Positions 32,847-59,691 of a stretch of DNA of 64,000 nucleotides are shown here, piece by piece. The stretch comes from Candidatus Poribacteria bacterium (lineage in GTDB: Bacteria > Poribacteria > WGA-4E > WGA-3G). Both the position numbers and the translations under genes were made by a program. The notes below the pieces were generated by a model. That model had not been told where the DNA came from and made no database searches. It saw only the letters and a program-made list of their open reading frames with translations. The DNA is taken from positions 224,001 to 288,000 of the forward strand of contig CBDBFU010000014.1 in the NCBI GenBank assembly GCA_965205025.1, written 5' to 3'. The stretch's first letter is position 1; each line of letters opens with the position of its first letter.

Positions 32847-32850
32847 AGAA

Positions 32851-40905: not shown

Positions 40906-43900
40906 ATGAACAAAGAAGCAATCAAATCCGCATTAGCAGCTATCACAACTGATAATTTCTTAGACAACACAAATGTACTCTTAGCAACATTAGGATACAA
41001 AAGCGAAAAGACTGCAGACCTATTCGGTTCAGTTGACGAATTCATCAATGAATATGAGGCACCGAACCCAAACACAAAAACAGAACAGGAATTCCGCCAA
41101 CATGTCAAATCTGTGCAATTTGTATTTCAATATACGACCGACGAAATTGTTGACGATCCACAGCTAGAACTATTTGAGCCGGCATCCTTTGATAAAGGAA
41201 ATTACCATAGTTTTATTTTCTGCGCGGTTGAACTAAAAGACAATGACTATTCACGCACAAAATATGCAGAATTCACGAGAGAAATTAACAAACGACTTAT
41301 TACTCCCACCGTTGTCTTCTTTCGTGTAGAAAATAAGATAACAGTTGCATTTGCTGATCGCCGTCCAAACCTAACACCAATCGCTTGACGTACTCGGACA
41401 AGTCACCCTCATCAAGGACATCCGCCTGAACAACCCACACCGTGCACATCTTGACATCCTCTCCGAACTCTCACTTGAGGAATGCGTCGAGTGGATAGAC
41501 GAAAAGAAAAAACAGAAAAACTTCGACGGACTGCTGGCAGCATGGATCGCCAAATTAGATACAGAAGAACTTAACAAACAATTCTATCGGAAACTGTTTT
41601 CGTGGTATGAATGGGCAGTTGAGACAGCAAAATTCCCAACAGATGAGAATCGCATCATAGAGCCTGAGGAGCATGTGATACGTCTCATCACACGTCTACT
41701 CTTTATCTGGTTTATCAAGGAAAAAGGATTGATCGCCAATGAACTATTTAACAAAGCACAAATCCAAGACCTACTGAATGAGGATGACTTTGATAACGGT
41801 GACTCATACTATCGCGCCGTGCTACAAAACCTCTTTTTTGCGACACTAAACACTGAGATAGACAGACGTAAGTTTAGCAAGGAAAACTCAAACGGCCATC
41901 GAAACTTTTCAAAATATCGTTATAAAACACAGATGTCCGACCCCGATAAACTGTTGTCCCTATTTGCAGAAACCCCGTTTATCAACGGTGGCTTGTTCGA
42001 TTGCTTAGATAGTTTCAAAGCCACAGGTGAAGGCGGTTACAGAATTGACTGCTTCTCTGATAAGCAGTATAAGAAATTATCCATCCCCAACTGCCTCTTT
42101 TTTGACGAAAACCGAGGACTCCTACCACTACTTGAACACTACAAATTTACCGTTGAGGAAAACACACCGATAGATCAAGAAGTCGCACTTGACCCCGAAC
42201 TACTCGGCAGAGTGTTCGAAAACCTACTCGCCGCTATCAACCCAGAAACAGGAGAAACGGCACGCAAGATGACTGGTTCTTACTACACGCCACGCGCTAT
42301 CGTTGACTATATGGTGGAGGAGGCGTTGGTCGCTGCTTTATCTCAAAAATGCCAACCAACTGATGGCAATACGGAACTTTGGGATGAACGATTGCATTAC
42401 CTTTTTGACTATGCAAAGATGTGTGATGATGCAAGCGATTGGTTTGACAACAAAGAAACTGACGCAATTGTCAAAACTATCTCTAACCTCAAGATTTTGG
42501 ACCCAGCGGTCGGTTCGGGTGCGTTTCCGATGGGGGTACTGCATAAACTGACACTCGCACTCAGACGGCTTGATCCAGATAATATCCGTTGGGAAAAACT
42601 ACAAAAGGAACTCGCTGGAGAACGCGCAGCAGATGCTTTCAATACCCAAGACCAACAGGAACGCGATGATGAACTCACCGAAATCAGTGACACTTTTGAA
42701 CGTTACAGAGATTCTGACTTCGGACGGAAATTATACTTAATTCAAAATAGTATCTTCGGTGTGGACATCCAACCGATTGCGTGTCAAATCGCCAAACTCC
42801 GATTTTTTATCTCGCTCGCAATTGAGCAGGAATCGGACAGAAACACTGAGAACTTTGGCATCAAACCGTTGCCGAACTTAGAGACGCGATTTGTTGCTGC
42901 GAACACACTGATAGGTATAAATTTATCCGAAACAAAAGGACTGTTCCAAGCTGATACTGTGCAACAATTGCTAAAAGAAATTGATACAATTCGCGAAAGG
43001 TTTTTTCTTGCAAACAATCGCACGCAAAAACGTGACCTTGAAGAGCAGGAGGAAAATTGTCGCGAACAATTAGAAAAAGAATTGGAACGTCTGCGAACAG
43101 AATGGATTGAGAACCGACAAACAGAAATAGAAGCCAAAATTGCACCACTTCCCAACTCAGAACAACGGGAACAGTTACGCGAAAAAGAACAGAAAACGTT
43201 TGAAGCACGGAAAAAAGTGTTTGATGCTGACTTTGAAAATGCTCGCAAAATTGCACAATGGAAACCCTACGACCAGAATGCAAGAACAGATTGGTTTGAT
43301 CCCGAATGGATGTTTGGGGTTACGGATGGATTTGATGTTTTACTTGGAAATCCACCTTATATTAGTCATGATAAAATCCCAAAACAACTTAAAGCAAAAA
43401 TTAAGAATTATTACCAGTCATATCAACCATTTGCCGATTTATATTGTTATTTTATTGAGAAAGCTTTAGATCTACAGAGTGAGATCGGTGTTCTTAGCTT
43501 TATTACCTCAAATTCATACTTGAGAGCCGAGTATGGGGCACCGATCCGAAAATTGCTGCTAAGAAAAAATATATTGCTTCAAATGTTAAATGTTGAGGAT
43601 TCACAAGTTTTCGAAAGTGCAATTGTTAACGTTGCGATAATTATGTCTCGGCAACCGACAAATTCCATGGATAATTTTTGCCTTATTGTTAATTCACCAT
43701 TTTCAGGTAACAGTTTTGTAGACTTTGTGAAAACCAACGGTTTTAATTGTTCCCAAGATTACTTTAATTCAAAGTCGTGGAATCTTGCAGAACCAACACA
43801 TGTTGAACTTCAAAGGAAACTTGAAACATCAGGTAAAACCTTAGATCAGTTGGGTACAAAAATCAGATTAGGTATTGCCACAGGGAGCAATGACGCTTTT

Positions 43901-44593
43901 CTCATAGACGAAAATAAGAAAAGAGAGTTTTGTGAGAAAAATCATGTGAATGCTAAAATAATTAAGCCCGTTTTGAGAGGTAGAGATATTTCTCGCTATA
44001 TATACACCCTATCTGGACAGCATATTATACTTGCTAAAAATGGTGTTAATGTAAAGAAAGATTACCCCGATATATATGAACATTTAGAATCATTTGGAGA
44101 TAAATTCAAAAAACGTGGAGCGCAAGGACAACATTGGACTAATCTAAGGGCTTGTTCATTTTATGACGATTTCAAAAAGGAAAAGATTGTGTGGATTCCA
44201 TTGTCTGATATAGGGCGGTTTACTATCTGTAATGAAGAAGTTTATCTACTTAATTCTGCGTATTTTTTGTTACCACCTTCAGACATCAATTTAAAACTTT
44301 TGTTAGGTATTTTAAATTCAAGAGTAATTCGTTTTTATTTGGGAAACGTTGCAGTAACAAGTGGAATGGGAACGAGCCAATGGATAAACAATTATGTCAA
44401 AGAATTTCCTATTCCAACAGTTACTACTGAACAACAAACTGAAATCATTGAACTTGTGGATCAGATACTTGATGATAAACAAGCTAACCCCGATGCCAAC
44501 ACTTCCTCCCTTGAAAATGAGATTGATAAGCTGGTGTACGAATTGTATGATTTAACGGAAGATGAGATTGCCATTGTGGAGGGGAGTATCTAA
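40906..44593 (+). CDS. Type IIG/Eco57I-like m6A DNA methyltransferase with TaqI_C-like TRD; apparent frameshift at about 41370-41390
   Basis: PFINGGLF, GSYYTP, LDPAVGSGAF and GNPPY motifs; ORF 40906-41388 continues as DVLGQVTLIKDI in the frame of ORF 41675-44593. Confidence 0.9.
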
Positions 44594-44779
44594 ATCCCTG
44601 ATGCGGAAGATGAGAAGTCTGAAGTAAAGTCGTAGGTAGGTTTGTTATGATACATTGATATATACTCTTACATTTGATTGGCAAATCTACTTCGGAAATG
44701 TTATGATTAAATTGTTCTTCCTATCTCAACAATTGAGTAGAGAATGTTCTTGAGATTCATAACATAAGGAATTAATTTT

Positions 44780-46204
44780 ATGAGAAAAGGTAAATGCATT
44801 TACTGTAACCAAGAGAAAGAATTAAACGAAGAACATGCTTTTCCCAGATCTCTGCTACAGATAGCGGAAGGATCACCAGAATGGATCATTGATAGACATT
44901 TGTGTGAGGAGTGTAACGGAAAACTGAGCAAACTTGATAAAATACTAACAATGAGAGGTCCCATAGGACATACATGGAGTTTGATTAAGAGTGAATTAGG
45001 TCAGGAAAATGAAAATCAACAATCACTTCGTTATAATCAGAACTGTTATGGCCTTAAGCCTGATAGAATGATGGTGCCAGAACCTGTCTTGGAAAACCGT
45101 ATAGGTTTATTCAAATTATTAGTAGAGAACTGTGAAAACAAGGCATCTTCTAATTCAATCGAAAACTCACTTGATCCTGTGGTTCCGCAGATAATTTTAA
45201 CTTTATATGCAGAATGGCAACAACTTGAGGAGACGAGGGATGAAACAGTAGATAATTTTGATAGTTTAGATATTATTCCCTATACCGACAATGATTTTAA
45301 GGGATCAGTATACTGGATCGGGAATGGAAAAATAATGACACAGGCTTTAAGTGACTCTGTTATTTTGGTGCCGAGATTGTCGGTTCAAAACCATAATTTT
45401 GTGCTGTTTCCTCCTATTCTTCCACCAAACGCTACTGAGGATTTTCCTTTTCCCCATACCTATGTTTTTTCTCAAAAGGCTACAGAATATTTCTTTGATC
45501 AACCAAGAGATTTTCAGTCCAAATTTCTAAGAAATCTTGATTGGATTCGGAGTGATTTGACGATTATAAAAGATAGTAAAAATAAGAAACATGGTAAAGC
45601 AAAGTATTTCAGACAGTCTGTAAAAGCTGACCACATAACTGTTGTAGACAAACAAATATATCTCAAAGATAAAACATATGCTGATATTCCAAGACTCAAA
45701 ACACTACGAGGCAGATTTGCAACAGATGGCAACGCTAAATTATATATTGAGAGAGCCATTGCAAAAATAGGGTTTCACTGCTTTTTGTACCACTATTTTG
45801 ATGAGTTTAATGGACATGAACCCATATTTGATGATATTAAAACATTTATATTTAAGGAAAATACTCCTAATAATTTCGTTATTGAATACAAAGATGTAGC
45901 CGAAAATCCTATTTATTCTTCTAATACACACTTCCACAACATATCATTTTATCGAGATGGACAAAACATTGGTTGCCAAATAATTTTATTTACAGGACTT
46001 TGGAGGAAACCATTTTCCTTTTACATAACTTTGTCGGGTAAGATCAAAAATTGGAACGTTGAGTCTGATAAAACAGAACATATTCCTTTCTATCTGAGTA
46101 GTAAAAGTGACAGAAAGAGACGGGTATATCCTCCAAGCGACTCTGAGATAATACAAAAACCGAGTCTAAAAGATATGTTTATAGTTGGTATAACACGCTA
46201 TTGA
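44780..46204 (+). CDS. HNH endonuclease domain protein
   Basis: N-terminal CIYC...EEHAFP...LCEECN; RAIAKIGF motif in the C-terminal part. Confidence 0.75.
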   Translation: MRKGKCIYCNQEKELNEEHAFPRSLLQIAEGSPEWIIDRHLCEECNGKLSKLDKILTMRGPIGHTWSLIKSELGQENENQQSLRYNQNCYGLKPDRMMVPEPVLENRIGLFKLLVENCENKASSNSIENSLDPVVPQIILTLYAEWQQLEETRDETVDNFDSLDIIPYTDNDFKGSVYWIGNGKIMTQALSDSVILVPRLSVQNHNFVLFPPILPPNATEDFPFPHTYVFSQKATEYFFDQPRDFQSKFLRNLDWIRSDLTIIKDSKNKKHGKAKYFRQSVKADHITVVDKQIYLKDKTYADIPRLKTLRGRFATDGNAKLYIERAIAKIGFHCFLYHYFDEFNGHEPIFDDIKTFIFKENTPNNFVIEYKDVAENPIYSSNTHFHNISFYRDGQNIGCQIILFTGLWRKPFSFYITLSGKIKNWNVESDKTEHIPFYLSSKSDRKRRVYPPSDSEIIQKPSLKDMFIVGITRY

Positions 46205-46239
46205 TTGCTTGAAGAAGTTTTCCGCTATTAGATCAAATT

Positions 46240-47433
46240 ATGAGCACACAAACACAATCCGCAACCCAAAACGCGCTTAACAGAATTCTTGAACTAATCC
46301 GTGAGATAGTAGAGAAATCAGTTAATGGAAACTGCATTTATCGTGGTGAACCTGATCACTATGATAAAGTATCCTCGAATTTCTATAGGATGTATCCAGG
46401 TGGTTTTGACCCAGATGCCTCAACCAATTTAGAGGTCCTACGACAGGAAACTCTAAGAAATGCTCAGCAATACATCCAAGATGACACAATAGATGACTTT
46501 GGACTTTTAACTGAGCTGCAGCACTATGGCAGTCAAACCGACCTTATAGACTTCACAACAGACTATCATATTGCCCTTTTCTTCGCATGCAACGATTCTC
46601 ATGACAAAGATGGTAGGATTGTCGTGTTGAAAAGAACCGAGGATATTGATGAAAAATACAGAGTCCAACAACCTTTAAGACCTCTCAATCGCGTCAAGGC
46701 ACAAAAAAGTATATTCACTCAACCTCATAAGGGATTTATTGATCACAACGATTTAATCACTATTACTGTACCTGCCAATCTAAAACAGTGGATACTTATT
46801 TATCTACGGTTGTCCGAGAATATATCTACTCAAAGCCTCTACAACGATCTATACGGCTTCATCCAAGATAAACATGTACGTTACTCACGCGAAGCAAGTC
46901 TTCCACTTGTTTTGGCTGAACTACAATTAAAACACATTGCGGACAATAATCTATCGGTTGAAGAAAAACAATCTACATATCAAGAAGTAATAGAACATTA
47001 TATAGAAGCTTTACAATACTCACCGTATAATGTTAAGCTTTATGTGGATCAAGGTAAATGCTACTTAGATGTCAACCAATATGATTGTGCAATTGAAGCT
47101 TGTAGTAAAGCATTGCTCTTACATCCCAATTATTTTGAAGCTTATGTTTGTCGTGGTCTTGCTTTTTTCCATAAAAAGGATTACAGAAGTACTATAGAAG
47201 ACTTTGACTATATTATAGAAGCAAGTCCAGAGAATACTATGGTATACATCTTTAGAGGCATTGCATTTTTACACCTACAAGAATGGGAAAAAGCAAAATT
47301 AGACTTTGAGGCTGCCAAAGAGATGAGTGAAACTATTACCATTTTATTTCGTCAGGACTCTCAAAGCATTTTAGATTTTGAGCAGAAGTATAACGTTAGA
47401 CTACCCGCAGACATCGCTGCTCTAATAAAATAG
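46240..47433 (+). CDS. FRG domain + TPR protein
   Basis: IYRGE, LQHYGSQTDLIDFT..IALFFAC and NRVKAQKSIF motifs; C-terminal TPRs. Confidence 0.9.
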   Translation: MSTQTQSATQNALNRILELIREIVEKSVNGNCIYRGEPDHYDKVSSNFYRMYPGGFDPDASTNLEVLRQETLRNAQQYIQDDTIDDFGLLTELQHYGSQTDLIDFTTDYHIALFFACNDSHDKDGRIVVLKRTEDIDEKYRVQQPLRPLNRVKAQKSIFTQPHKGFIDHNDLITITVPANLKQWILIYLRLSENISTQSLYNDLYGFIQDKHVRYSREASLPLVLAELQLKHIADNNLSVEEKQSTYQEVIEHYIEALQYSPYNVKLYVDQGKCYLDVNQYDCAIEACSKALLLHPNYFEAYVCRGLAFFHKKDYRSTIEDFDYIIEASPENTMVYIFRGIAFLHLQEWEKAKLDFEAAKEMSETITILFRQDSQSILDFEQKYNVRLPADIAALIK

Positions 47434-47669
47434 CAGGGTAACAGTAAACGCTTGCCATAGCGAATTATCTGATGTTACAGATTATCAATCCGTGTCCTCT
47501 GTGTCCTCCGCAATTCAGACAACAAAGAACGCCGAACATGCAATACACCTCTCACACCAAACACAAACCAATGTCAAGGCTCTCACTTGTAAATGAGATT
47601 GATAAACTGGTCTATGCCTTATATTACCTCATTGATAAAGAAATTGCCGCTTTGGAGGGAATAGAATGA
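47401..47669 (+). repeat. Cassette junction repeat copy 1 (TPR-gene tail, linker, MTase-tail copy)
   Basis: GATGTTACAGATT..CAATCCGTG..ATTCAGACAACAAAGAAC..CACACCAAACACAAACCAATG, then AAATGAGATTGATAAACTGGT (NEIDKLVY) matching 44516-44590. Confidence 0.85.
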
Positions 47670-49042
47670 GCACTGAACAAACTGAGTTAAACAGAATCTT
47701 AGAAATAATCGCTGAAATAGGATATAAATCTGCTACCAGTGATTATATCTACCGCGGTGAACCAGAATGCTATCCGAAAGTTTCCTCAAATCTCTATCGT
47801 GAACTTGAAGATGCAAACCTTTTACATCCCCATCTTAAGATAGAAGATATCCAAAAAACAGAATTGGAAGACGCTAAAGGGTATGGGTACATCAAGAAAA
47901 CTGACGATTTTGATATTCTCAGCGAAATACAACACTTCGGTGGAAAAACAAACTTATTAGACTTTACGTGTGATTACAGGGTTGCTATTTTCTTTGCATG
48001 TGAACGATTCCCTTTCAATGATGGCAGGATTATCCTGCAAGACAAAAATGGAATAATAAAAGATTGCATTAGAACATCTCAGAATGTAGTGCAAGGAAGC
48101 CGTCCCGATGTGCAAAAAAGCATATTCGTTCAACCACCTGAAGGCTTTATAGAACCGGATAAGACAATCGTCATTCCAAATTCACTCAAACAGCCTATCC
48201 TGAAGTATCTTGAAGATGAATTTGACATATCTACTGAGCGAATCTATCCTGATCTTCATGGCTTTGTTAGTAGACAGAAGACACGCCTTGGGACATATAA
48301 GGAACTTGGTAAAGGAAATAAATGTAGAGAAAACGGGGATGCGGAAGATGACCTTACAAAAAAGAACAATCAATATGAAAAGGCAATTGGGCACTATACT
48401 AACGCAATACAACAGATGCCTGGAATTGCTTTAGCATATATCGGACGAGGGTTCGTTTATTCTTCAAAAGATGACCCCGATAACGCCCTTGCCGATTATG
48501 ACAAGGCATTAGAATTGGACCAAAATTCTAAGGAGGCATATAAAGGTCGTAGTGCCGTTTACCGCGCCAAAGATGAAATTGATAAGGCAATTGATGACGC
48601 TGTTAAGTTAGTAGAACTTGATCCATCTGATGCTGCTGCACATTGCGCTCTCTACCTTGCTTATTGGGATAAAAATGATTTTGAAAACGCATCTGTTAGC
48701 ATAAGTGAAGCAATCCATCTGAAACCAGATCAATCTGAATTCTACTTTTCGCGTGGTGATATTTACTTCACCAAAAGAGATTTTGACAATGCCATTAAAG
48801 ACTATAACAAAGCAATGGAACTAAACCTCAATTCTTCCAAAATCTATTATAACAGGGGTTTGGCTTATATCCTCCAGAGAGAATGGACCAAAGCAAAATA
48901 TGACCTGATTAAAGCGAGGGACTTGAAGATGGATATCACTGTTGAGTTTTCCAAATTTGGAAGTATTGAAAATCTTGAGCAAGAAATAGGTATCCAGTTA
49001 CCGCCAGACATTGTTGAAATGCTAACGCCTCCACAGTCATAG
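47666..49042 (+). CDS. FRG domain + TPR protein
   Basis: YIYRGE, IQHFGGKTNLLDFT and TPR motifs; ends LPPDIVEMLTPPQS. Confidence 0.9.
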   Translation: MSTEQTELNRILEIIAEIGYKSATSDYIYRGEPECYPKVSSNLYRELEDANLLHPHLKIEDIQKTELEDAKGYGYIKKTDDFDILSEIQHFGGKTNLLDFTCDYRVAIFFACERFPFNDGRIILQDKNGIIKDCIRTSQNVVQGSRPDVQKSIFVQPPEGFIEPDKTIVIPNSLKQPILKYLEDEFDISTERIYPDLHGFVSRQKTRLGTYKELGKGNKCRENGDAEDDLTKKNNQYEKAIGHYTNAIQQMPGIALAYIGRGFVYSSKDDPDNALADYDKALELDQNSKEAYKGRSAVYRAKDEIDKAIDDAVKLVELDPSDAAAHCALYLAYWDKNDFENASVSISEAIHLKPDQSEFYFSRGDIYFTKRDFDNAIKDYNKAMELNLNSSKIYYNRGLAYILQREWTKAKYDLIKARDLKMDITVEFSKFGSIENLEQEIGIQLPPDIVEMLTPPQS

Positions 49043-49068
49043 CAATATTAAAACTGTCTGATTGGATA

Positions 49069-49992
49069 TTGATGAAAATGGAAATGATTGATAGATTTCG
49101 TGGGCAGGAAGGAAATAAACGGCTTATTTCGGCATTACGCACACAAGCCATCTTTCATAACAACGAACCTTTAATAAAGGAAATAGCAGACCAAGCTGAA
49201 CTTTTGCAGTTTGAATCAGGAAAGGAATTAATAACTCAAGATAATGTGGATAATGATATCTATTTTATTTTATCTGGACGACTTTCTATCGTTGTTAATG
49301 GACGCGAAGTGGCAATTAGGAATTCTGGACAGTACGTAGGTGAAATGGCGTTGATTGATCCATCTGCTAAGCGTTCTGCCTCGGCTATTGCTATCGAACA
49401 AACGGTTGTTGCGAAAATCTCTGAGGCATCTTTCTATCCGTTAGCAAATAAATATCCAAAAGTCTGGCAGCTAACCGCGATAGAAATTTGTAATAGATTA
49501 CGCCAAAGGAATAGGTTAGTTGTTTCTAAAAATCCACGTCCAGTCTTGTTTATAGGTTCTTCATCGGAATCTCTTGAGGTAGCACGGGCAATTCGTTCTA
49601 ATTTTAATCACGATGATTTTGTTATAAATTTATGGACAGATAAAGTTTTTGGTCCTTCACGGTTTCCAATTGCCGAACTTGAAAAAATGGTTCAACAAGC
49701 CGATTTCGCAGTGTTAGTGCTGGGTCCTGACGATAAGGTAGAAAGTCGAAACGAGAAATCAGATGCACCGCGCGATAATGTAATTTTTGAGTTAGGACTA
49801 TTTATGGGAGCTTTATCACATGAACGAACCTTTATGGTTGTCCCTCGCGAGTGTGATATTAAAATTCCAACTGATTTGTTAGGTCTTATTCCTTTGAAGT
49901 ATAAATCAGATGACTCTAATAATCTTACTTCCTTATTAGGTGCGGTCTGTGATGAACTTCGGGATATAATTAACGAAATGGGTGTTAAATAA
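49069..49992 (+). CDS. pycTIR: Pycsar effector PycTIR (cNMP-binding domain + CAP12-type TIR)
   Basis: CNBD (VGEMALID...RSASA) fused to TIR (FIGSSSE...RDNVIFELGLF); adjacent to a cyclase. Confidence 0.9.
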   Translation: MMKMEMIDRFRGQEGNKRLISALRTQAIFHNNEPLIKEIADQAELLQFESGKELITQDNVDNDIYFILSGRLSIVVNGREVAIRNSGQYVGEMALIDPSAKRSASAIAIEQTVVAKISEASFYPLANKYPKVWQLTAIEICNRLRQRNRLVVSKNPRPVLFIGSSSESLEVARAIRSNFNHDDFVINLWTDKVFGPSRFPIAELEKMVQQADFAVLVLGPDDKVESRNEKSDAPRDNVIFELGLFMGALSHERTFMVVPRECDIKIPTDLLGLIPLKYKSDDSNNLTSLLGAVCDELRDIINEMGVK

Positions 49993-50013
49993 TTTTATAT
50001 AAGGAGAATTATA

Positions 50014-50709
50014 ATGAGTTTAGTTGACGATTATACTGAAGCAGTTAAGGAGATATTTGAGGAAGAATGGGAGACTCGTGAGGGGCAAAAAGTTCCAGAA
50101 TCTGAAGATTTGAAGTTAAGTAACGATGCCGTGGAGTTAGATGGGACAGTGCTTTATGCAGACCTTGATGATTCTACAAACCTTGTGGATAATTACGATC
50201 CAGAATTTGCAGCTGAAATATATAAAGCGTATCTTAATTGTGCTGCTAAGGTGATACGGTCTGAGGGCGGTGAAATTACTTCTTACGATGGTGATCGTAT
50301 CATGGCAGTGTATATTGGCGATGAAAAAGATGATTCTGCTGCTCGTTCAGCATTGAAAATAAACTACACAGTTAAGAAGATCATCAATCCTCTCTTAGAA
50401 GAACATTATCCTGATGAGGATTATCGTGTAAAACAGGTCGTGGGTATTGACACCAGCGAGTTATTTATAGCACGCACTGGAATACGTGGATCAAATGATC
50501 TTGTTTGGGTTGGACGTGCCGCGAACTACGCAGCGAAATTATGTTCACTTTCACCTAATTATCCCTCACGACTGACCAAAGCGGTATACGATAACTTGGA
50601 TAACTCAGTTAAGTATTCAAGTGAAGGGAAGCTTATGTGGGGGGCTGCAAAATGGACAGATATGAATAACATGAAAATTTATCGATCAACTTGGCGGCGG
50701 AAAGTATAG
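50014..50709 (+). CDS. pycC: Pycsar pyrimidine nucleotide cyclase PycC (probable uridylate cyclase)
   Basis: LYADLDDST, YDGDR, VGIDTS and GIRGSNDLVWVGRAANYAAKL motifs; resembles TIR-associated PycC such as that of Burkholderia cepacia. Confidence 0.9.
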   Translation: MSLVDDYTEAVKEIFEEEWETREGQKVPESEDLKLSNDAVELDGTVLYADLDDSTNLVDNYDPEFAAEIYKAYLNCAAKVIRSEGGEITSYDGDRIMAVYIGDEKDDSAARSALKINYTVKKIINPLLEEHYPDEDYRVKQVVGIDTSELFIARTGIRGSNDLVWVGRAANYAAKLCSLSPNYPSRLTKAVYDNLDNSVKYSSEGKLMWGAAKWTDMNNMKIYRSTWRRKV

Positions 50710-50774
50710 GTAAGTTATGCTATTGACTAATTGGAAAATCGAGAGACTATTTGAATCGCTTATGGAGCAAGGAT

Positions 50775-50979
50775 TGTAGATTTTCAATCAGTGTTAATCT
50801 GCGTAATCCGCGTCAATCCGCGATTCTGATAACAAAGTACCTCGAATATACAATACACCCTCACACCAAAACACAGACCAATGTAAAGACTTACACCTGA
50901 AAATGAGATTGTTACGCTCGTATACGCATTGTATAATTTAACAGTAAAGAAAATTGCGATTGTGGAGAAAAAAGAATGA
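50775..50979 (+). repeat. Cassette junction repeat copy 2 (3' part)
   Basis: AATC.GTG/CGT 9-mers, CACCCTCACACCAAAACACAGACCAATG, then GAAAATGAGATTG...TTTAAC...GAAAATTGCGATTGTGGA (MTase tail). Confidence 0.85.
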
Positions 50980-52643
50980 ATACATCAAATCAATCTAATA
51001 CCTCAAATGAAAAACCAAGCACTATTGAGGACATCATCCGGACTATACAAGAAAAGTCAAAAGATGGTAGCTACATCTTCCGTGGTGAACGCCAATGTCG
51101 TAATAAAAAAGTTTCCTCAAAACTTTATCGAGACTTTGAGGATATAGACTCAGAAACATTTGATATTGAGGTAATCCAAAAAGAGATGCTTAGCGGTGCT
51201 AAAAAACATACTGGACATTATCCACAATCAGGGGAGACACCTCCAGACTTCCGTCCAACTCTCGCGAGAATGTTTAGGGTGAGAGAAGAAGATACTGCAG
51301 AAACTATTGATTTTGAGATACTTACTGAAATCCAACACTATGGTGGTAAGACAAATCTAATTGATTTCACGACCGACTATTGCATTGCCCTATTTTTCGC
51401 ATGCGATGGTCACCATGACAAAGACGGTCGATTAATCCTACTAAAAACACAGAATATAAAAGACATGATCAAGTATCCCAAGGAGCCAAGACATCGGGTT
51501 ATCGCCCAGAAAAGTGTAATTGTGCGTCCGCCGAAAGGTTATATTGAACAGCACGAGTATCATATAGTAAAAATCCCCGCTAAACTCAAAGAGGAAGTAC
51601 TACAGTATTTAGAAAAATATCATGGGATTTTCACGGAAACAATCTATAATGATCTTCATGGTTTTATTAGAAACCAGGATATTCATGGAGACGCCAACAC
51701 ATCTTTTTATAGAGGACTCGCATGTAGCAATAGAGGAGATAAAGTGGAAAGCAAAGAAGAAAAACAGAAGGAATATGAAGAAGCTATAACACACTATACT
51801 AAGGTAATCGAATTAAGACCCGATTTTGCTGGGGCATATAACAATCGTGGTAGTGCCTACAGCGATAAAGGTGAGCTTGACAGAGCTATCAAAGACTATG
51901 ACACCGCAATAGAAATCAAACCTGATTATGCTAATGCATATAATAATCGTGGTAGTGTTTACAGCGATAAAGGTGAGTTTGACAAAGCTATCAAAGACTA
52001 TGACACCGCAATAGAAATCAAACCTGATCATGATGCATATATCAATCGTGGTAGTGTTTACAGCGATAAAGGTGAGTTTGACAAAGCTATCAAAGACTAT
52101 GACACCGCAATAGAAATCAAACCTGATCATGATGCATATATCAATCGTGGTATTGTCTACAACAAGAAAGGTGAGTTTGACAAAGCTATCAAAGACTATG
52201 ACACCGCAATAGAAATCAAACCTAATTATGCCAAGGCATATAATAGTCGTGGTATTGCCTACGGAGAAAAAGGTGAGCTTGACAAAGCTATCAAAGACTG
52301 TGACATGGCAATAGAAATCAATCCTAATTATGCTGACGCATATAACAATCGTGGCTTCACCTATCAAAAAAAAGATGATGTTGATAACGCCATAAAAGAT
52401 TATAACACCGCGATAGAATTGGATCCTGGAATGGCAATAGCCTATACTAATCGAGGAGAAGCATGGCTACACTTAAAAGAATGGGATAAAGCGAGAACCG
52501 ACTTAATGACCGCCAAGGACATGGGCATAAGTATTATAGAGTCATTTCAGAATGACTATAAAAGCGTTGCCGACTTTGAGCAGAAGTATAACGTTGAACT
52601 CCCCGAAGACATTGCCGCACTACTAACACCTCCACAGTTATAG
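50976..52643 (+). CDS. FRG domain + expanded TPR array protein
   Basis: YIFRGE, IQHYGGKTNLIDFT and HRVIAQKSV motifs; near-identical TPR units; ends LPEDIAALLTPPQL. Confidence 0.92.
   Translation: MNTSNQSNTSNEKPSTIEDIIRTIQEKSKDGSYIFRGERQCRNKKVSSKLYRDFEDIDSETFDIEVIQKEMLSGAKKHTGHYPQSGETPPDFRPTLARMFRVREEDTAETIDFEILTEIQHYGGKTNLIDFTTDYCIALFFACDGHHDKDGRLILLKTQNIKDMIKYPKEPRHRVIAQKSVIVRPPKGYIEQHEYHIVKIPAKLKEEVLQYLEKYHGIFTETIYNDLHGFIRNQDIHGDANTSFYRGLACSNRGDKVESKEEKQKEYEEAITHYTKVIELRPDFAGAYNNRGSAYSDKGELDRAIKDYDTAIEIKPDYANAYNNRGSVYSDKGEFDKAIKDYDTAIEIKPDHDAYINRGSVYSDKGEFDKAIKDYDTAIEIKPDHDAYINRGIVYNKKGEFDKAIKDYDTAIEIKPNYAKAYNSRGIAYGEKGELDKAIKDCDMAIEINPNYADAYNNRGFTYQKKDDVDNAIKDYNTAIELDPGMAIAYTNRGEAWLHLKEWDKARTDLMTAKDMGISIIESFQNDYKSVADFEQKYNVELPEDIAALLTPPQL
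51835..52420 (+). repeat. Near-identical 99-102 bp TPR-coding tandem repeats
   Basis: AATCGTGGT...GACAAAGCTATCAAAGACTATGACACCGCAATAGAAATCAAACCT repeated about 5-6 times. Confidence 0.92.
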
Positions 52644-52920
52644 CAGCATAGTAAAAAACACTCACCTTAGCAGGTTAACTGATGTTACAGATTCCCAATC
52701 CGTGTAATCTGTGTAATCTGTGTAATCCGACGAATTCCATACGCGGATTCGGCGTTGATTTGGTGATTCAGACAACACAGAACCCCAAACAGACAGGACA
52801 ACCCTAACACCAAAACACAGACCAATGCAAAGGCTTACCCTTGAAAATGATCTTGCTAAGCTGGTCTCCGAACTGTCCAATTTAACGGAAAAAGAAATTG
52901 CGATTGTGGAAAGGTCTGTC
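52600..52920 (+). repeat. Cassette junction repeat copy 3 (complete)
   Basis: CTAACACCTCCACAG tail, AATCTGTGT 9-mers, CACAGACCAATG, then CTTGAAAATGA..TAAGCTGGT..TTTAACGGAA..ATTGCGATTGTGGA. Confidence 0.9.
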
Positions 52921-53015
52921 CGATTGGCAAAAGACGCTTAGATTGAGAGGGAAATAGGGATTTTGGTTGATATGTCGGGGTTGGTTGCGTTATCATTACC
53001 ATCAAGGAATACGAA

Positions 53016-53699
53016 TTGTGCAGGAGAAAAGTTATGCAAGAACTAAATCAAGGGTTTGTTAATGCTTCTTACGACCCCAATTTTATTTATGCTGATAACA
53101 CACTATCTCGCATACAGGATAGTGTTGAGGCGTACAATAACCAAGGCGTTAATCATGCCAAAAATGGACATTATGATCTTGCCATCATCTCCTTCAAAAA
53201 AGCGATAGAACTAAAACCTGATTATGCTACATCTTATTATAATCGAGGTCTAACTTATCTGCTCAACGACGAAGTTGATAAGGCAATAAGAGATTATACA
53301 AAAGTAATAGAACTTAACCCAGATAATGCGGAAGTCTATAACATGCGTGGATGTATTTATTTCAGCAAAAATGTGGTTGACCATGCCATTAAAGACTTTA
53401 ATAAAGCAATAGAGCTGAACCCAGATAATGCCGTTGCCTATAACAACCGCGGTTTAGCTTATGCGAAAAAAAGTCAGGTGGAATTTGCTATTGCTGACTA
53501 TTCTAAAGCGATAGCACTCAATCCCGATTTTGCTGAGGCATATTATTATCGCGGAGGTGCATTGTTACGACTCGAAAAGCGAGAGAGGGCTAAATTAGAC
53601 CTCGCGATTGCCAGAAGCATGGAATATGACTCTCTCATTGCCTTAGACAAAATACTGAAAGATTACGATCGCGCATGGAAAACCCTCGCCAACTTATGA
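53016..53699 (+). CDS. TPR protein
   Basis: About five canonical TPRs (AYNNRG..Y); likely start ATG at 53034. Confidence 0.85.
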   Translation: MCRRKVMQELNQGFVNASYDPNFIYADNTLSRIQDSVEAYNNQGVNHAKNGHYDLAIISFKKAIELKPDYATSYYNRGLTYLLNDEVDKAIRDYTKVIELNPDNAEVYNMRGCIYFSKNVVDHAIKDFNKAIELNPDNAVAYNNRGLAYAKKSQVEFAIADYSKAIALNPDFAEAYYYRGGALLRLEKRERAKLDLAIARSMEYDSLIALDKILKDYDRAWKTLANL

Positions 53700-53786
53700 A
53701 ATATTTAGATGATTGCAGAGAATAAAATCCGCGTCCTCTGTGTCCTCCGCGAATATCCGCGATTCAGATTTTACTCAAAAGTGAAA

Positions 53787-53816
53787 TTGACAAAACCGGC
53801 ACATGTATAGTATGAT
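53787..53816 (+). promoter_or_regulatory. Putative internal sigma-70 promoter
   Basis: TTGACA-18 bp-TATGAT upstream of 53854. Confidence 0.55.
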
Positions 53817-53853
53817 TTAACATTAGAGGTATCTGCATTGTGGTGATCAAAGT

Positions 53854-54887
53854 TTGAACACACAAACAACCGAACTGAACAAGATTTTAGAGATAATTGG
53901 TAGGATAGCAAAAACAACTGCGGATGGAGACTTCATCTACCGCGGCGAACCCGAACATTATAAAGAAGATTCGTACTATGAGAAAGTATCCTCAAGTCTC
54001 TGGCGTGACTGTAGAAAGGAGATTGGAACAGAGGAGTTTGATATAGAAGTCATCCAAAAACAAATGCTGGAAAAGGAGACGTAAAAAACATGCAGACACA
54101 TACAGGACAGGCCTCCTACGATACCGCTATCCAGCACTATAACAAAGCAATCGCTTCAAAACCGAATTTTGCCCACGCTTATAACTATCGCGGCATTGCC
54201 TATAGTAATATAGGTGAGTTTGACCGCGCGATTGAGGATTTCAATAGAGCTATACAACTCAAAGATGACTATGCCGAGGCTTACAGTAATCGTAGTGGTG
54301 TTTACCGTATTCAAGGTGACTATGACCGCGCCATTAAGGATTGTAACACAGCGATAAGACTCGACCCCAATTTGCCAGAAGCATATAACAATCGAGGGAT
54401 AATTTATAAACTCACAGGCGAAATAGATCGGGCTATTGAAGACTATAACACGGCTATAGTACTTGATCCAAACTTCGCTTACGCTTATTACAATCGCGGT
54501 ATTGTCTACCACGAAAGAGACGACTTTGAGCGTGCCATCAGAGACTATACCAAGTCAATAGAACTGAGACCAGACCTTGTCCATCCCTATAATAACCGCG
54601 GGAATGCATACACTCAAAAAGGCGCGTATGAACGTGCTATAAAAGACTATGATGCGGCGATAGAACGGAACACTGATTTAGCAGAGCCGTATTACAATCG
54701 CGGCATGGCGTTTTTAACCCTCGAAAACTGGGATAAGGCAAAATCGGACCTAACAACTGCTGTAGAACTCAAAGAAACTATTGTCCTTGAGAACTTCAGC
54801 AAAGACTATAAAAGCATTGCTAACTTTGAGAAGAAACATAATGTTACCCTACCAGAAAACATCACCGCACTGCTAACACCTCCATAG
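53854..54887 (+). pseudogene. FRG-TPR paralog with most of the FRG domain deleted (split ORFs 53854-54084 and 54090-54887)
   Basis: FIYRGE..KVSS N-terminus but no QHYG core; TPR half ends LPENITALLTPP. Confidence 0.8.
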
Positions 54888-55065
54888 CCATAGCAAAACA
54901 GAAAACACTCACCTTAGCAGATTACCTGATGTAACAGATTACCAATCCGCGTTTTCCGTGTTCTCCGCAATTCAGACAACAAAGAACCCTGAAGGGATAG
55001 GACAACCCCCACACCCAAACACAGACCAATGCCAAAGGGGTGTCTACAGTTTTTGGCATTAATTT
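54850..55065 (+). repeat. Cassette junction repeat copy 4 (MTase tail replaced by ATGCCAAAGGGG...TTTTTGGCAT unit)
   Basis: Same TPR tail and linker blocks as 52600-52830. Confidence 0.85.
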
Positions 55066-55339
55066 ATACCATTTCTGGTAATTAAAGTCTCATTAATAGA
55101 ATCTCTTTTTTGTAGCACAAACTGTATGAAGATTAAGAAAATATTTCGGTAATTCTAATTTTTCCATACCCGGTAGGTGCGGTTTCCTAACCACGGGGAA
55201 TGCTAAATAGCATTCATACCGTTGATTCGAATTTCTAACACATTACCGAATTATTATTTTAAGCTTCATTTAGTTTGTGCCGTATTAGATTACATTTCAC
55301 AAAAACCTGTAATGCGAACCCATTTTTTAGAAATGGTAT
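55066..55339. mobile_element. ATACCATTTCT-TIR MITE with nested element, REP and hairpin unit
   Basis: Same nesting order as 35380-35850. Confidence 0.85.
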
Positions 55340-55512
55340 CAGATAAAATCGAAGATACATTTCATTCACGCCATTGTTAAAACACAATAAACATATGTGA
55401 TTCACGGAAAATTGGTATACTTAAAATTATAAACCCTTATAGAATAAGGGCTCGTAAAATTGCTCCGTGAAGGTTTCCGTGAAAATGCTATCAACTCAGA
55501 ACGATAAATATT

Positions 55513-55638
55513 AACACTTTTTCCATAAAACTTAAAATAATTTGAAGAAAATATAAACATCTAACAACTAACACATATATCACAATAACATAAAATAAAT
55601 TAAATATATTTGTCAAAATCAAAACAAAATGATACAAT
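55513..55638 (+). repeat. About 125 bp AT-rich promoter-containing segment duplicated at 58129-58255
   Basis: Near-identical sequence ending TTGTCA-17-TACAAT in both copies. Confidence 0.85.
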
Positions 55639-57192
55639 ACTATATCGTTCAATAATTATAAACTAAAAATAACACGTTACTTGGGAGATACGAAATATTA
55701 TTTATATCGTGAAAGTATAACTATTTTCTACAGTGTATCTCAAAAATACGAATCGTTCATAACCATATAATTACTCTTCGTAGGGACGGGTTCTCCCCGT
55801 CCGTTATTTCAATATAAAGTACAGTGTAAGAACAAAAAATTCTCCATATATATGATTTATGAGATAAGCTCAAATTATTTAGACTTCTAAACTTTATGCC
55901 AAATTCAACCAAATCCACTATCTGGGAAATAGGAAAATCCATGTTAGAATTACAACCAAAATATTCAGAATTATCACCCCATAAGCAGATACAGAGGAAA
56001 ATCAATGCGAATTCAACCGAATATTTTTTTAGTTTTTCTAATTTTAATATTTTACACCGATTAATCAAATCCTTTGTTATCCCAATCCCCAACAGGGTTT
56101 ACGGCTCATTAAAAAATCATTTCTTAAAAAGCAACTAAAAAAACTTGAAAAACTAAAAGAGCTAAAAAAACTAAAAATTAGACCGGCTTCAAACAAAACA
56201 GACTATCATGCACAACAGTAAACTACAGCGTATCTCATTACTACGAATCGTCCATACAGATATAATTCTCTTCATAGAATTCGGATTTCCCCATCCGTTG
56301 GTTGAAAATATAGCAAATGGCACGTACAAAGAATCCTCCAAATCTATGATTTATGATATATGTTCCAATATCTTGTCAAAATGGAAACACAAAATATTTC
56401 ACATTCAAACAATCCTAAATCAATGGATCAAAAGAAAAGTAAAAGACACAAAATTCATCACCACTTTATAATTTTTACAAATTCTTGTAACCTTAAAAAA
56501 TAGATCTAAACCCAGTGTAGTACTGACGGGATAGAGGTTTTTCCAATGTCACACCATGTGACAAAAAGTGTAACTTTATTCAACATATAAATAACTAAAA
56601 TATTACTATTGTGAACATAAAAAAACAGCAAGATTACAGTAAAATTACCCTCGGTTCAATATAATACATAGAAAAAAGATCCCTATGATACCGTTATATT
56701 CATGCCAAAAACTTTACACACCCATGCCAAAGGGTGTAAACTTTTTGTCACCATAGGTGTTAATTTACACATTAGACTCTTCTGTAGGCGGGGAATGCCT
56801 AAATGGCATTCATACCGTTGATTCCGAACTCCGATTCCCGACTCTTCTCTTCCTCTTCGTAGGGGCGGGGTCTCCCTGACCGATATTTGTATCACAATCT
56901 TCATGAGGATTAAATAAATATTTCGGTAATTCTAATTTTCCCAAACCCGGTAGGTGCGGTTTCCTAACCGCACTGGATTTTTCTTTAAAATTACCGGATT
57001 AAAAAATTAATCTTCATCCAGATTGCGTCTTGCGGTATAGCACAAACTAACAGTTTATGCTACAAAATAGACACATATAGTGACAAATTATTTACATACC
57101 CATGCCAAAGCTTTCACTTGAAAATCCATTTGACGTTATGATATACTGCTGATACAATCAGACTGCAAACATAATATAAGGAGGATTAATCC

Positions 57193-57597
57193 ATGAACGG
57201 CACCGAAAAGGTTGTAAAACATCTGGAAATGACGCAAGCCGTTATTAACCGCTTGGGACGCAACAGTTTTCTCTTAAAAAGTTGGAGCATGACGATCCTC
57301 GTTGCAGCAATGGTCTTAATCACAAGAGAAAACCTGCAAAATTCAAATTTTGTCTTGGTCCTCTTCCTTCCCATCGTAGGATTTTGGATTCTGGATGGAT
57401 ACTTTCTTTCGCAGGAACGGTTGTTCCGATATGTCTATAATGATATCAGAGAGCAAACTGATACCGATTTCAAGATGGATCTCGGCAAGCACAAGGACAA
57501 ACCGAAAAGTAGTTGGATATCCGCTATTTTTTCAGTAACGCTTATTATTTTTTATCTGATAGAAGTCCTTTTTGTGAGTGCAATTGCCTATTTTTAA
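57193..57597 (+). CDS. Small 3-TM membrane protein (putative defence effector)
   Basis: KHLEMTQAVINRL..NSF.LK.W and FW.LDGYFL.QERLFR motifs; GGAGG RBS. Confidence 0.75.
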   Translation: MNGTEKVVKHLEMTQAVINRLGRNSFLLKSWSMTILVAAMVLITRENLQNSNFVLVLFLPIVGFWILDGYFLSQERLFRYVYNDIREQTDTDFKMDLGKHKDKPKSSWISAIFSVTLIIFYLIEVLFVSAIAYF

Positions 57598-57649
57598 ATT
57601 GATTCTAAGTCGATATGAGATGCGTCTTTTCGGTAATACCAAGATTTCT

Positions 57650-57866
57650 AATCACCGCACTGCTAACGCCTCCACAGCCATAGCAGCATAACAGAACTCC
57701 CTTCTTAGAAAATTACCTGATGTTACAGACTGCCAATCCGTGAAATCCGTGTAATCTGTGTAATCCGCGATTCAGACAACAAAGAATCCCGAACAGACAA
57801 GACAACCCTCACACCCAAACACAGACCAATGCCAAAGGGGTGTGTAAAGTTTTTGGCATTAATTTA
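57650..57866 (+). repeat. Cassette junction repeat copy 5 (orphan TPR-gene tail plus linker)
   Basis: ATCACCGCACTGCTAACGCCTCCACAGCCATAG (ITALLTPPQP*) with no TPR gene upstream; closely parallels 54860-55065. Confidence 0.85.
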
Positions 57867-58255
57867 CTTAATATAACGAGTTGTGCTAAATAACTTTTAG
57901 CAACCAATAATTTCACATATATAATAGTTGATATGAATATCCTACATTAGTTAAGACTTTCTTTAGTCCCGTAGGGACGGAATGTCTATAGAAAACCAAT
58001 GAAAAACCTAAGTTGAGTCCCGTAGGGACGGAATGTCTATAGTAAAAAACCAAAATCCGTAAAAACAACAAATACATTTAGTTAACTGGCACAAGTCGTT
58101 AATATAAACTGTATCAAATTCTAATTTCACACTTTTTCCATAAGACTTAAAATAATTTGAAGAAAATATAAACAGCTAACAACTAACACACATATATCAC
58201 AATAACATAAAATAAATTAAATATATTTGTCAAAATCAAAACAAAATGATACAAT

Positions 58256-58376
58256 CAGGACTTACGCATTTCATCTTAAAGTCCCCCTGATAAGGGGGAT
58301 TTAGGGGGTTAAAACACTGAAATGACGGCTTTTTAAGTTAAATTTACCTTTTTCTGATTAAGTTGCGTAAGTCCTG
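58256..58376. mobile_element. CAGGACTTACGCA-TIR MITE (copy without hairpin inserts)
   Basis: Matches 36944-37133 minus the inserted hairpin units. Confidence 0.9.
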
Positions 58377-58529
58377 TAAGAATCTAATGATAAGTCTATT
58401 TTTTGGAGTTTTCTATATCAAAAATACCGTACTCCAGCGGAGTACTATGTCTATAGAAAACAATATCGGAACAGTCTGGCACTCCAGCGGAGTGCCATGT
58501 CCCAATACACTACGTATGAAAAACATATA

Positions 58530-58657
58530 ATACTATTTCTGGTAATTAAAGTCCCATTACAAAAATCTCTTTAATGTAGCACAAACTTCCAGTTTGTGTA
58601 GTATTTCAAGACATAAATATCACCTAATCATGGAAGAATCATTTATAGAAATGGTAT
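58530..58657. mobile_element. ATACCATTTCT-family MITE (copy without nested insert)
   Basis: Same ends, with an uninterrupted GTAGCACAAACTTCCAGTTTGTG palindrome. Confidence 0.8.
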
Positions 58658-58862
58658 AAGTACTTAATACACACTTAAGTTATAATATAATCAACGTATG
58701 TGATTCACGGAGAATTGGTATACTTTAAATTATAAACCCTTATAGAATAAGGCTTCGTAGAATTGCTCCGTGAAGGTTTCCGTGAAAGTCCGGTTTAAAA
58801 TTTGCAATTATCTGCATATATATGGTATACTAAATTAGGTTAATTAAGCGTTAGGTTCAAAA

Positions 58863-58896
58863 CCTTTTTAATCCCATCCCGAGAGGTGGAAAAAGG
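58863..58896 (+). promoter_or_regulatory. PyrR-binding loop of the pyr leader
   Basis: CCTTTTTAAT-CCCATCCCGAGAGGTGG-AAAAAGG resembles the CTTTAA...TCCNGNGAGG consensus, upstream of pyrR. Confidence 0.8.
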
Positions 58897-59048
58897 ATGT
58901 TAGACTACAAAACGGGAACTTATGTTCCCACCTATAATAAAATAATAATACATCAGTTCATACTTAGAGATCTAATTCCAAACTACTCCATTACCTCAAA
59001 TCTATTAAATTTACAAATTTGTTGTAAAGTTCAAATACTAAATCTGAC

Positions 59049-59079
59049 CCTTCTCACTCAAAAGTGAGAAGGTTTTTTT
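59049..59079 (+). terminator. Attenuator terminator of the pyr leader
   Basis: CCTTCTCACT-CAAA-AGTGAGAAGG followed by T7. Confidence 0.85.
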
Positions 59080-59137
59080 ATGTCAAATACATTAGAATAA
59101 ACACTAAGACAAATAATAATTTTACTTGGTCAAAACT

Positions 59138-59691
<554 letters not shown>

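Follow-up and report, generated by a model that had tools for sequence, protein, structure and literature searches.

Genes of the array

We analyzed a 64,000-nucleotide (nt) stretch of a Candidatus Poribacteria genome (the window: positions 224001-288000 of contig C14, in a 5.66-Mb genome of 33 contigs labelled G000), with the focus on a run of genes that follows a PLD-SNF2 helicase gene and a Type IIG-like methyltransferase (MTase) gene and ends near 57.9 kb. The run holds genes of several defence families, among which a composite junction recurs that includes a pseudo-copy of the 3' end of the MTase gene. Open reading frames (ORFs) were scored with Pfam and PADLOC, and several of the cargo families are PADLOC candidate systems. 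The anchor genes and the cassettes, with protein lengths in amino acids (aa), are as follows.

37522..40821, + strand: PLD(HKD)-SNF2 helicase, the anchor gene (Pfam PLDc_2, SNF2-rel_dom, Helicase_C; PADLOC C3a139 'HKD+Snf2', E 2.4e-105)
40906..44593, + strand: Type IIG-like MTase in two ORFs, 40906-41388 and 41675-44593 (Pfam Eco57I, TaqI_C; PADLOC REase_MTase_IIG)
44780..46204, + strand: first-slot gene, 474-aa protein (weak N-terminal Pfam HNH_5 match, E 5e-4, below cut-off)
46240..47433, + strand: FRG-TPR1 (Pfam FRG and TPR; PADLOC PDC-S15)
47666..49042, + strand: FRG-TPR2, C-terminus ..LTPPQS* (Pfam FRG and TPR; PADLOC PDC-S15)
49069..49992, + strand: PycTIR (PADLOC E 1.2e-117; Pfam cNMP_binding and CAP12-PCTIR_TIR for the effector)
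50014..50709, + strand: PycC (PADLOC E 9.4e-105)
50976..52643, + strand: FRG-TPR3, C-terminus ..LLTPPQL* (Pfam FRG and TPR; PADLOC PDC-S15)
53016..53699, + strand: TPR-only protein of 227 aa, TPR227 (Pfam)
53854..54887, + strand: internally deleted FRG-TPR4, with an FRG N-terminal fragment (53854-54084) and a TPR ORF (54090-54887) (tblastn)
55036..57093, no strand: stretch filled by short dispersed repeats, with no family hit for any ORF (repeat and domain scans)
57094..57597, + strand: PDC-M50A cassette, in which the M50A gene (57193-57597; PADLOC E 1.1e-36) stands behind a promoter-like region and a remnant (57094-57130) of a right-linker end and the beginning of a tail

A first-pass annotation of this DNA had described the cargo as varied, including FRG-TPR paralogs, Pycsar and a TPR protein, and the Pfam and PADLOC assignments bear this out. 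The FRG-TPR genes match PDC-S15, itself a candidate system, at E 1e-16 to 4e-19. The make-up of a Pycsar system is present, with a predicted PycC beside a cNMP-binding effector. PDC-M50 is a candidate system that needs an A and a B gene, and the window has M50A only; it is 91.5% identical to the copy in the related genome G007, where M50B stands next to it, M50B being deleted in the window. FRG-TPR4 is 88-91% identical to its G007 counterpart at the nucleotide level, with ~490 nt missing from the window copy. The 474-aa first-slot protein has a 32.5% identical paralog on contig C15, fused there to TPR and TaqI_C domains. A metagenome scan with this protein gave just four short N-terminal motif matches on unrelated contigs, and an HNH-like candidate behind a pseudo-tail in locus L025 was rejected as a homolog, as it had no homology.

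A frameshift alignment with the intact G007 ortholog places a deletion of 2 nt near 41386, which splits the MTase into two ORFs (160 and 972 aa); the N-terminal fragment matches an intact 1197-aa paralog. The split gene may be either a pseudogene or an assembly error.

Anatomy of the junctions

Five junction copies lie between 44.5 and 57.9 kb, three of them with a clear tail. In a MAFFT alignment of nine copies, the junction is a directional composite of 250-330 bp with one shared architecture: first, the 3' coding end of an effector-TPR gene (..LLTPPQ*) plus a left linker (LinkL), ~50 nt; second, a tract of TAATCCGYG 9-mers terminating in ATTCAGAC; third, a right linker (LinkR), a CA-rich leader of ~63 nt with the 3' end CCAATG; and fourth, the pseudo-tail, a pseudo-copy of ~90 nt of the 3' end of the Type IIG MTase gene. 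A repeat search over 43-59 kb returned a family for the MTase tail (110 nt at 44471, 47547, 50857, and 52801), the left linker (73 nt at 47447, 52657, 54904, and 57695), the right linker (67 nt at 47512, 52765, 54969, and 57769, plus a copy at 50815 within a 46-nt family), and the TPR 3' end (35 nt at 49010, 52611, 54861, and 57651). The z-scores given below for the tails come from local alignment with the real tail at 44493-44593 against 500 mononucleotide shuffles.

44493..44593, + strand: real MTase 3' tail (..LENEIDKLVYELYDLTEDEIAIVEGSI*), source of the pseudo-tails; carries TTGATA-17-TATGAT (sequence reading, alignment)
47447..47578, + strand: junction J1, with LinkL, 9-mer tract and LinkR (repeats, alignment)
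47579..47669, + strand: pseudo-MTase tail 1, its stop overlapping the FRG-TPR2 start (ATGA) (z 22.6)
50780..50883, + strand: junction J2, with degenerate LinkL end, 9-mer tract and LinkR (alignment)
50884..50979, + strand: pseudo-MTase tail 2, with TTGTTA-17-TATAAT and an ATGA overlap with FRG-TPR3 (z 31.2)
52644..52831, + strand: junction J3, with LinkL, 9-mer tract containing a ~40-nt insertion, and LinkR (alignment)
52832..52915, + strand: pseudo-MTase tail 3, no overlap, next gene starting 100 nt on (z 29.1)
53725..53768, + strand: fragment of a 9-mer tract at a cassette joint (sequence comparison)
~53777..53843, + strand: pseudo-tail 4, degenerate, retaining TTGACA-18-TATGAT and ATTGTGG (z 10.4; same in G007)
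54892..55035, + strand: junction J4, with LinkL, 9-mers and LinkR, and a dispersed palindromic element in place of the tail (alignment)
57651..57835, + strand: junction J5, with a 35-nt TPR-tail scar, LinkL, 9-mers and LinkR, no tail (repeats, alignment)

The first-pass annotation had reported that the MTase tail recurs in degenerate form at three sites, that the first two copies end in an ATGA overlap with an FRG-TPR start, and that tail-less linker copies lie at ~54850-55030 and ~57650-57830. The repeat search, the alignments and the z-scores support the first of these statements, and the tail-less copies correspond to J4 and J5. The overlaps are present in the sequence, with ATG at 47666 and TGA at 47667-47669 in the one case and ATG at 50976 and TGA at 50977-50979 in the other. 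Its statement that the linker follows a TPR gene ending in ..LLTPPQ* needs correction at two places: J2 with its tail (50780-50979) follows PycC and has a degenerate left linker, and FRG-TPR1 ends in ..AALIK*, a 12-nt deletion variant of that C-terminus. To the three reported tail copies we add the degenerate pseudo-tail 4, which stands just ahead of FRG-TPR4.

Cassette turnover among relatives

BLAST mapping of the modules covered 26 array loci, 24 of them in 16 other genomes and 2 in G000; locus L003 on contig C15 was retrieved in addition. A 408-nt junction query matches arrays in many genomes of the same genus, and the module maps place arrays in L016-L039. At E <= 1e-5, 9 of the 40 genomes of the genus have LinkR, in 1-6 copies per genome; G020, which has no BLAST-detectable LinkR, shows the same layout with a diverged leader. 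The upstream flank, consisting of helicase and MTase, is conserved across loci, and the downstream flank varies (pyrR in the window, other genes elsewhere). The cargo of relatives is diverse and includes PDC-M50A/B, PDC-M11A/B, Pycsar, FRG-TPR, TIR-TPR, AAA_15/AriA-like ATPases, a Schlafen-like protein, antitoxin-PIN pairs, DUF433/DUF5615, and family-less proteins (352/355 aa and 480 aa). With the probe set used, we could name the gene that directly follows the MTase at 13 of 18 loci, where it is of 9 kinds, and five loci stayed without a name.

Like the anatomy of the junction, the turnover of cassettes can be read directly from the compared loci. The first-pass annotation would have been contradicted by an identical cassette order in all relatives; we found that content and order vary. 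The closest ortholog is locus L018 of G007, with 88.6% identity over 5.4 kb (helicase and 5' part of the MTase); the two helicases share 93.4% protein identity and 0.73 identity at 4-fold sites. Behind the G007 MTase stand M50A and M50B, a fragment of a 355-aa gene, and FRG-TPR4, whereas the window has six other cassettes, then FRG-TPR4, then M50A, so that M50A and FRG-TPR4 occur in opposite order. Pycsar lies directly behind the MTase in G020, with 76% nucleotide identity to the window copy. The block formed by a TPR-tail scar, J3 and TPR227 (52619-53737) recurs at 89% identity on contig C13 behind an ATPase pair in a Type ISP locus, and at 78-85% behind FRG-TPR in G032 and G033.

Several of these joins could be localised, and the breakpoints fall mostly in 9-mer tracts, not in MTase or TPR tails. 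Two G007 loci share a 96.8% identical block (LinkR, M50A, M50B, TPR scar and LinkL) that terminates inside a 9-mer tract. The antitoxin-PIN cassette occurs after three different neighbour cassettes in four junction-bearing contexts, with every join at a 9-mer tract or tract fragment, the C13 join having ~14 nt of microhomology. TPR-tail scars of ~25 to 75 nt are found behind non-TPR cassettes, and their variation in length suggests that crossovers or deletions took place at variable points and not at the fixed end of an element.

Further, we compared the junction with phage and plasmid collections and obtained no match. An Rfam scan of 44000-59500 gave two sub-threshold hits, none inside a junction, and the idea that the junction is a known RNA family was rejected on that ground.

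Contigs assembled from four sequencing runs (X1-X4) give a view of the surrounding population. Contigs ~10% diverged from the window, at a depth far above that of the strain's own contigs, cover many of the cassettes, and related strains therefore appear to co-occur in the same samples, including a run labelled as a sponge metagenome. An identical contig spanning 44551-50980 backs that part of the assembly, possibly being derived from the same data as the genome. A joint from 55026 to 44512 occurs in a contig whose depth far exceeds that of contigs from the strain itself; we interpret it as the place where LinkR meets the tail in a co-occurring relative, and not as a rearrangement. No structural variant was seen in this material, which as contigs cannot show rare ones.

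Dispersed and array-bound parts

The 9-mers with the ATTCAGAC core are a genome-wide dispersed repeat: under a strict pattern (>=2 9-mers) we counted 89 sites on 22 of 33 contigs, all of which carry the same ATTCAGA end. Four of the strict sites lie in the 13.4-kb array against ~0.2 expected, an enrichment of ~19-fold. Within G000, the window array and one locus on contig C13 are the only places with LinkL, the 3' part of LinkR and the tails, apart from matches to the real tails of two paralogous MTases. The possibility, raised by the first-pass annotation itself, that the junction is a dispersed repeat is thus answered in two parts: the core 9-mers are dispersed, and the flanking parts (LinkL, LinkR and tails), like the complete junction, are bound to arrays.

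The (TAATCCGYG)n plus ATTCAGAC elements form a directional family that often occurs in tandem clusters with CA-rich spacers, as at C27:74260-74554, C2:339177-339648, and C7:208092-208420. A second dispersed element is a small palindrome starting ATGCCAAAG, found at 55030-55062, 56716-56745, and 57830-57862 with many further genomic copies; it stands in the place of the tail after LinkR in J4 and J5. Further dispersed elements occupy 55036-57093 and follow J4 and J5.

A directional repeat so enriched in the array, with joins falling within it, invites an explanation by site-specific or transposase-like exchange at the 9-mer tract, the enzyme acting in trans in an integron-like or REP/RAYT-like manner. 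At several loci, inverted copies of the element also enclose LinkR and tail, and a copy comes after the stop in 6 of 9 real MTases. We nevertheless regard this explanation as quite unlikely. A search of the whole G000 genome for an integron integrase (TIGR02249) gave 0 hits above cut-off and two weak tyrosine-recombinase hits on other contigs. The window ORFs that were scanned gave no integrase, recombinase or transposase domain, and the array ORFs of 13 related loci gave no integrase or other recombinase, just occasional DDE transposases; RAYT-type transposases were not searched for. The absence of a visible recombinase, remarked on in the first-pass annotation, therefore extends from the window to these relatives and, for IntI, to the genome. 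No attC-like single-stranded DNA fold was detected in eight folds of segments of the junction, over both strands (z -2.0 to +1.0, 200 shuffles each). Scar lengths and join points, moreover, vary.

Origin of the pseudo-tails

Locus L038 of G062 (3808-9503) holds an intact operon of helicase, MTase and TIR-TPR genes, in which the 1261-aa MTase ends in ..IAIVEGKE* and its TGA overlaps the TIR-TPR ATG. The context of this overlap, GGAGGGAAAAGAATGAGC, is nearly the same as that of pseudo-tail 1 and of the C13 tail. The coupling of MTase and effector through ATGA, which the first-pass annotation had supposed from the pseudo-tails, thus exists intact in one relative, and by sequence comparison the G062 operon is probably the surviving form from which the pseudo-tails derive. 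The locus is also a candidate for the minimal three-gene form of the system.

The point at which LinkR joins the tail is identical in all 16 LinkR-linked tails; because they share this one join point, the module of LinkR and tail would have arisen once and spread. Tails without LinkR (on C13 and in G008) are, on the same kind of comparison, probably separate captures. Several pseudo-tails copy the form found at 6 of the 9 other real MTases, in which the stop is followed by an inverted 9-mer tract.

On C13 and C15, the conserved C-terminal domain of the TPR proteins reads through into a TaqI_C-like, MTase-type specificity domain. The resulting fusions are TIR-TPR-TaqI_C (879 aa, L001 7943-10582, G000 C13), whose stop overlaps the GTG start of an AAA_15 ATPase gene, and HNH-like-TPR-TaqI_C (994 aa, G000 C15:381056-384040, - strand).

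Conservation and possible expression signals

The FRG-TPR paralogs share 39-45% protein identity and 0.29-0.40 identity at 4-fold sites, which is saturated; cassette genes compared between G000 and G020 have 4-fold-site identities of 0.52-0.61. The junction copies of the window are 72-88% identical, and LinkR has a mean identity of 0.81 over 24 copies from 6 genomes. The unit structure and direct orientation of the array would be expected if the junctions were passive scars of old tandem duplications of a unit of MTase tail and FRG-TPR, with no present function. We consider this explanation very improbable and set it aside, because the junctions are far better kept than the saturated cargo; in addition, the same junction surrounds unrelated cargo in many genomes.

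Junction copies are no more alike within genomes than between them (LinkR 0.812 vs 0.810, tail 0.731 vs 0.717, LinkL 0.731 vs 0.767), and concerted evolution was rejected on this ground. Because these identities are equal, gene conversion is not the reason for the likeness of the junctions. Two explanations are left: selection on the modules, or a recent exchange in which whole cassettes moved along with their junctions.

The tail carries TTGATA-17-TATGAT, with TATAAT in place of TATGAT in several copies, and GGAG 6-9 nt ahead of the next start. Tail 4 retains just the hexamer islands and ATTGTGG, in G000 and G007 alike, and among 9 real tails 8 vary hardly at all, synonymous sites included. 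From these features we infer an expression role for the tail. A conserved mini-ORF running from the LinkR ATG in frame into the tail was also considered and rejected, as there is no codon periodicity (p = 0.13). Of the 16 LinkR-linked tails, 6 have an open reading frame; the other 10 are broken by a stop at codon 2 (5 tails), a frameshift (4 tails) or truncation (1 tail).

These signals raise the question of whether the junction is purely an expression module, combining terminator or trailer, leader, promoter and ribosome-binding site, with cassette turnover being the ordinary flux of defence islands by horizontal transfer and illegitimate recombination. Such a module would account for promoter-like hexamers and a Shine-Dalgarno sequence at fixed tail positions, for a LinkR that is less diverse than the tail (0.183 vs 0.256) and lacks codon periodicity, for equal identities within and between genomes, as expected of purifying selection, and for the tail-less cassettes that carry promoter-like sequences of their own. 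It does not account for several independent joins inside shared 9-mer tracts, one of them with microhomology, nor for the same cassettes with the same flanking modules beside different neighbours, and roughly half of the tails have lost the -10 hexamer. We judge it unlikely that the junction is an expression module and nothing else.

Proposed recombination among shared modules

We lean, though only slightly, toward reading the region as about eight anti-phage cassettes behind a PLD-SNF2 helicase and Type IIG MTase, reshuffled by recombination among the modules that they share. The part played by recombination is what we infer from the compared sequences, and the following course of events would fit. 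The pseudo-tails would be remnants of an operon whose MTase stop overlapped the start of an effector-TPR gene. The tail would travel with the cassettes because its promoter-like -35 and -10 hexamers and GGAG ribosome-binding site serve the next gene. Over evolutionary time the array would grow and reshuffle through recombination among shared modules, with most crossovers in 9-mer tracts and some inside the TPR tail or the MTase tail, and exchange would take place within and between genomes without a dedicated recombinase. The modules would stay alike through their own functions, as coding sequence and expression signals, and not through gene conversion.

A number of results weigh against this reading. 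ATGA coupling was found in just 1 of 10 real MTases read at the nucleotide level, and junctions are not homogenised within genomes. The -10 hexamer is replaced by TCCGAT or TCCAAT in about half of the pseudo-tails, and a promoter scan gave 52 sites overall against 47.3 in shuffles, which is no enrichment. The longest exact matches between the junction copies of the window are 7-31 nt, and the real tail shares 13-15 nt of exact identity with the clear pseudo-tails and 12 nt with the degenerate copy at 53.7 kb. RecA-type recombination is usually quoted to need ~20-30 bp, and these identities are at or under that requirement. Lastly, comparison of loci cannot separate recombination at the modules from selection that spares the modules, either of which may have left the breakpoint pattern. 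With exact identity this short, frequent switch-like events look improbable; the data agree better with rare events, with events at short homologies in the 9-mer tracts, and with exchange involving DNA that arrives from relatives.

The first-pass annotation had gone further and proposed the MTase and TPR tails as active handles for homologous recombination, with frequent capture, deletion and promotion of cassettes and switch-like variation in populations. There is a good deal that agrees with it: the 3' end of the anchor gene is repeated before cassettes, the ATGA context equals that of a real coupled operon, and the TIR-TPR cassette occurs behind a real tail, behind LinkR and pseudo-tail, and behind LinkR-less pseudo-tails. 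In addition, diverged MTase paralogs keep real tails with 88% identity over 125-136 nt, next to parts encoding the target recognition domain (TRD) that cannot be aligned. Compared with its G007 ortholog, the window MTase is a mosaic with a 5' part at 88.6%, an unalignable TRD part (42916-44455, against L018 10116-11603), and a tail at 80%. Two G007 paralogs are 99% identical up to the TRD region and different beyond it. This pattern looks like TRD swapping and fits crossovers in the tail.

For the array, active tail handles are nonetheless improbable. The exact identity of 13-15 nt between the real tail and clear pseudo-tails at most, the lack of concerted evolution, the 10 of 16 LinkR-linked tails that are broken as reading frames, and breakpoints located mainly in 9-mer tracts all speak against it. 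Of the earlier proposal, the delimited array and the varied cassette order hold up; tails as the sites of exchange do not sit well with these data, and nothing shows an ongoing promotion of cassettes to the first slot.

Comparison with known systems

Integron cassette arrays are functionally the closest system, and chromosomal integrons have been reported to stockpile anti-phage systems (bioRxiv 10.1101/2024.07.02.601686, 10.1101/2024.07.02.601719). Integron arrays have in common with the array studied here directional, compact or promoter-poor defence cassettes, a recurring non-coding boundary, a fixed anchor locus, and content and order that vary among relatives. Neither of the defining molecular features of integrons, IntI and attC, was found here; the junction is a 250-330-bp composite that includes the 3' ends of neighbouring genes, and its anchor is a helicase-MTase locus. 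A bolder form of our reading takes the junction as a genus-wide dedicated exchange module and a recombinase-independent analogue of the integron, with the 9-mer tract as the crossover point and the tail copy, with its promoter and ribosome-binding site, making captured genes expressible; helicase-MTase restriction loci could in this way stockpile anti-phage genes and change their order. We regard this as a tentative idea that is rather more likely wrong than right.

In Rhs/CDI orphan arrays, a fragment of the main gene precedes each module, no recombinase is encoded, and homologous recombination is the accepted mechanism; through the repeated fragment, an orphan C-terminal toxin can replace the end of the main gene. 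The present array is similar in that a fragment of the anchor gene is repeated before downstream modules, with four tail copies in the window and many in relatives. It differs in that the extreme 3' tail is repeated and the modules are complete, unrelated genes (FRG-TPR, Pycsar, PDC-M50A), with 13-15 nt of exact identity between the real tail and the three clear pseudo-tails.

Type I HsdS and Type IIG enzymes shuffle TRDs between their conserved regions, and the mosaic MTases described above, with their conserved 5' part, unalignable TRD and conserved tail, resemble this. The array is not a store of alternative specificities, since the pseudo-tails contain no TRD coding sequence. A phase-variable specificity shufflon of a restriction-modification (RM) system has silent alternative TRD segments, usually with inverted repeats and a recombinase; here the pseudo-tails cover the last 90-115 nt only, the repeats are direct, and no recombinase was found in the ORFs scanned.

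Defence hotspots such as those of P2/P4 (PMC9122126) and the core defence hotspots of Pseudomonas (PMC10250203) hold variable anti-phage cargo at a conserved position, with exchange through conserved flanks. Such hotspots usually offer a single cargo slot, enclosed by two conserved flanks, whereas in the present array flank-like modules stand between all cassettes and the downstream flank is variable. A literature search covering listings and the openings of abstracts found no description of such arrays.

The array bears on an open question, namely by what route defence islands on chromosomes acquire, stack and rearrange systems when no mobile-element machinery is at hand. Its units and boundaries are readable from sequence in many species of one genus, with an intact 'ancestor' operon on hand, and it yields clear predictions, namely crossovers in defined modules and promoter activity of the 3' end of a gene. 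Junction-marked arrays are also a catalogue of candidate defence genes, including the 352/355-aa, 480-aa, HNH-like and effector-TPR families. If junctions do mediate exchange, they would represent a second, integrase-free route to integron-like cassette storage.

Flanks and further observations

Three helicase-MTase loci are present in the G000 genome. A near-identical AT-rich repeat lies on either side of the M50A cassette, at 55511-55638 and 58126-58255 (68 nt at 100%, flanks 94%), and parts of it also occur near another helicase locus (L002 ~15900-16760). The TPR227 copies at 53016-53699 and L001 12412-13095 have codon-position identities of 0.938, 0.947, and 0.934, and the near-equal divergence at the three positions suggests relaxed or diversifying selection.

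Upstream, a separate Type II RM pair, consisting of an N6_N4 MTase and a TdeIII-type endonuclease (31177-33621), lies 4 kb ahead of the helicase. Downstream, a weak Rfam match to a PyrR binding site at 58860-59081, below threshold (34.8 bits; gathering score 54), lies just upstream of a 136-aa ORF without Pfam hit (59126-59536). This ORF precedes a dihydroorotase-like gene and a gene for the small chain of carbamoyl-phosphate synthase, which form the housekeeping edge of the array.

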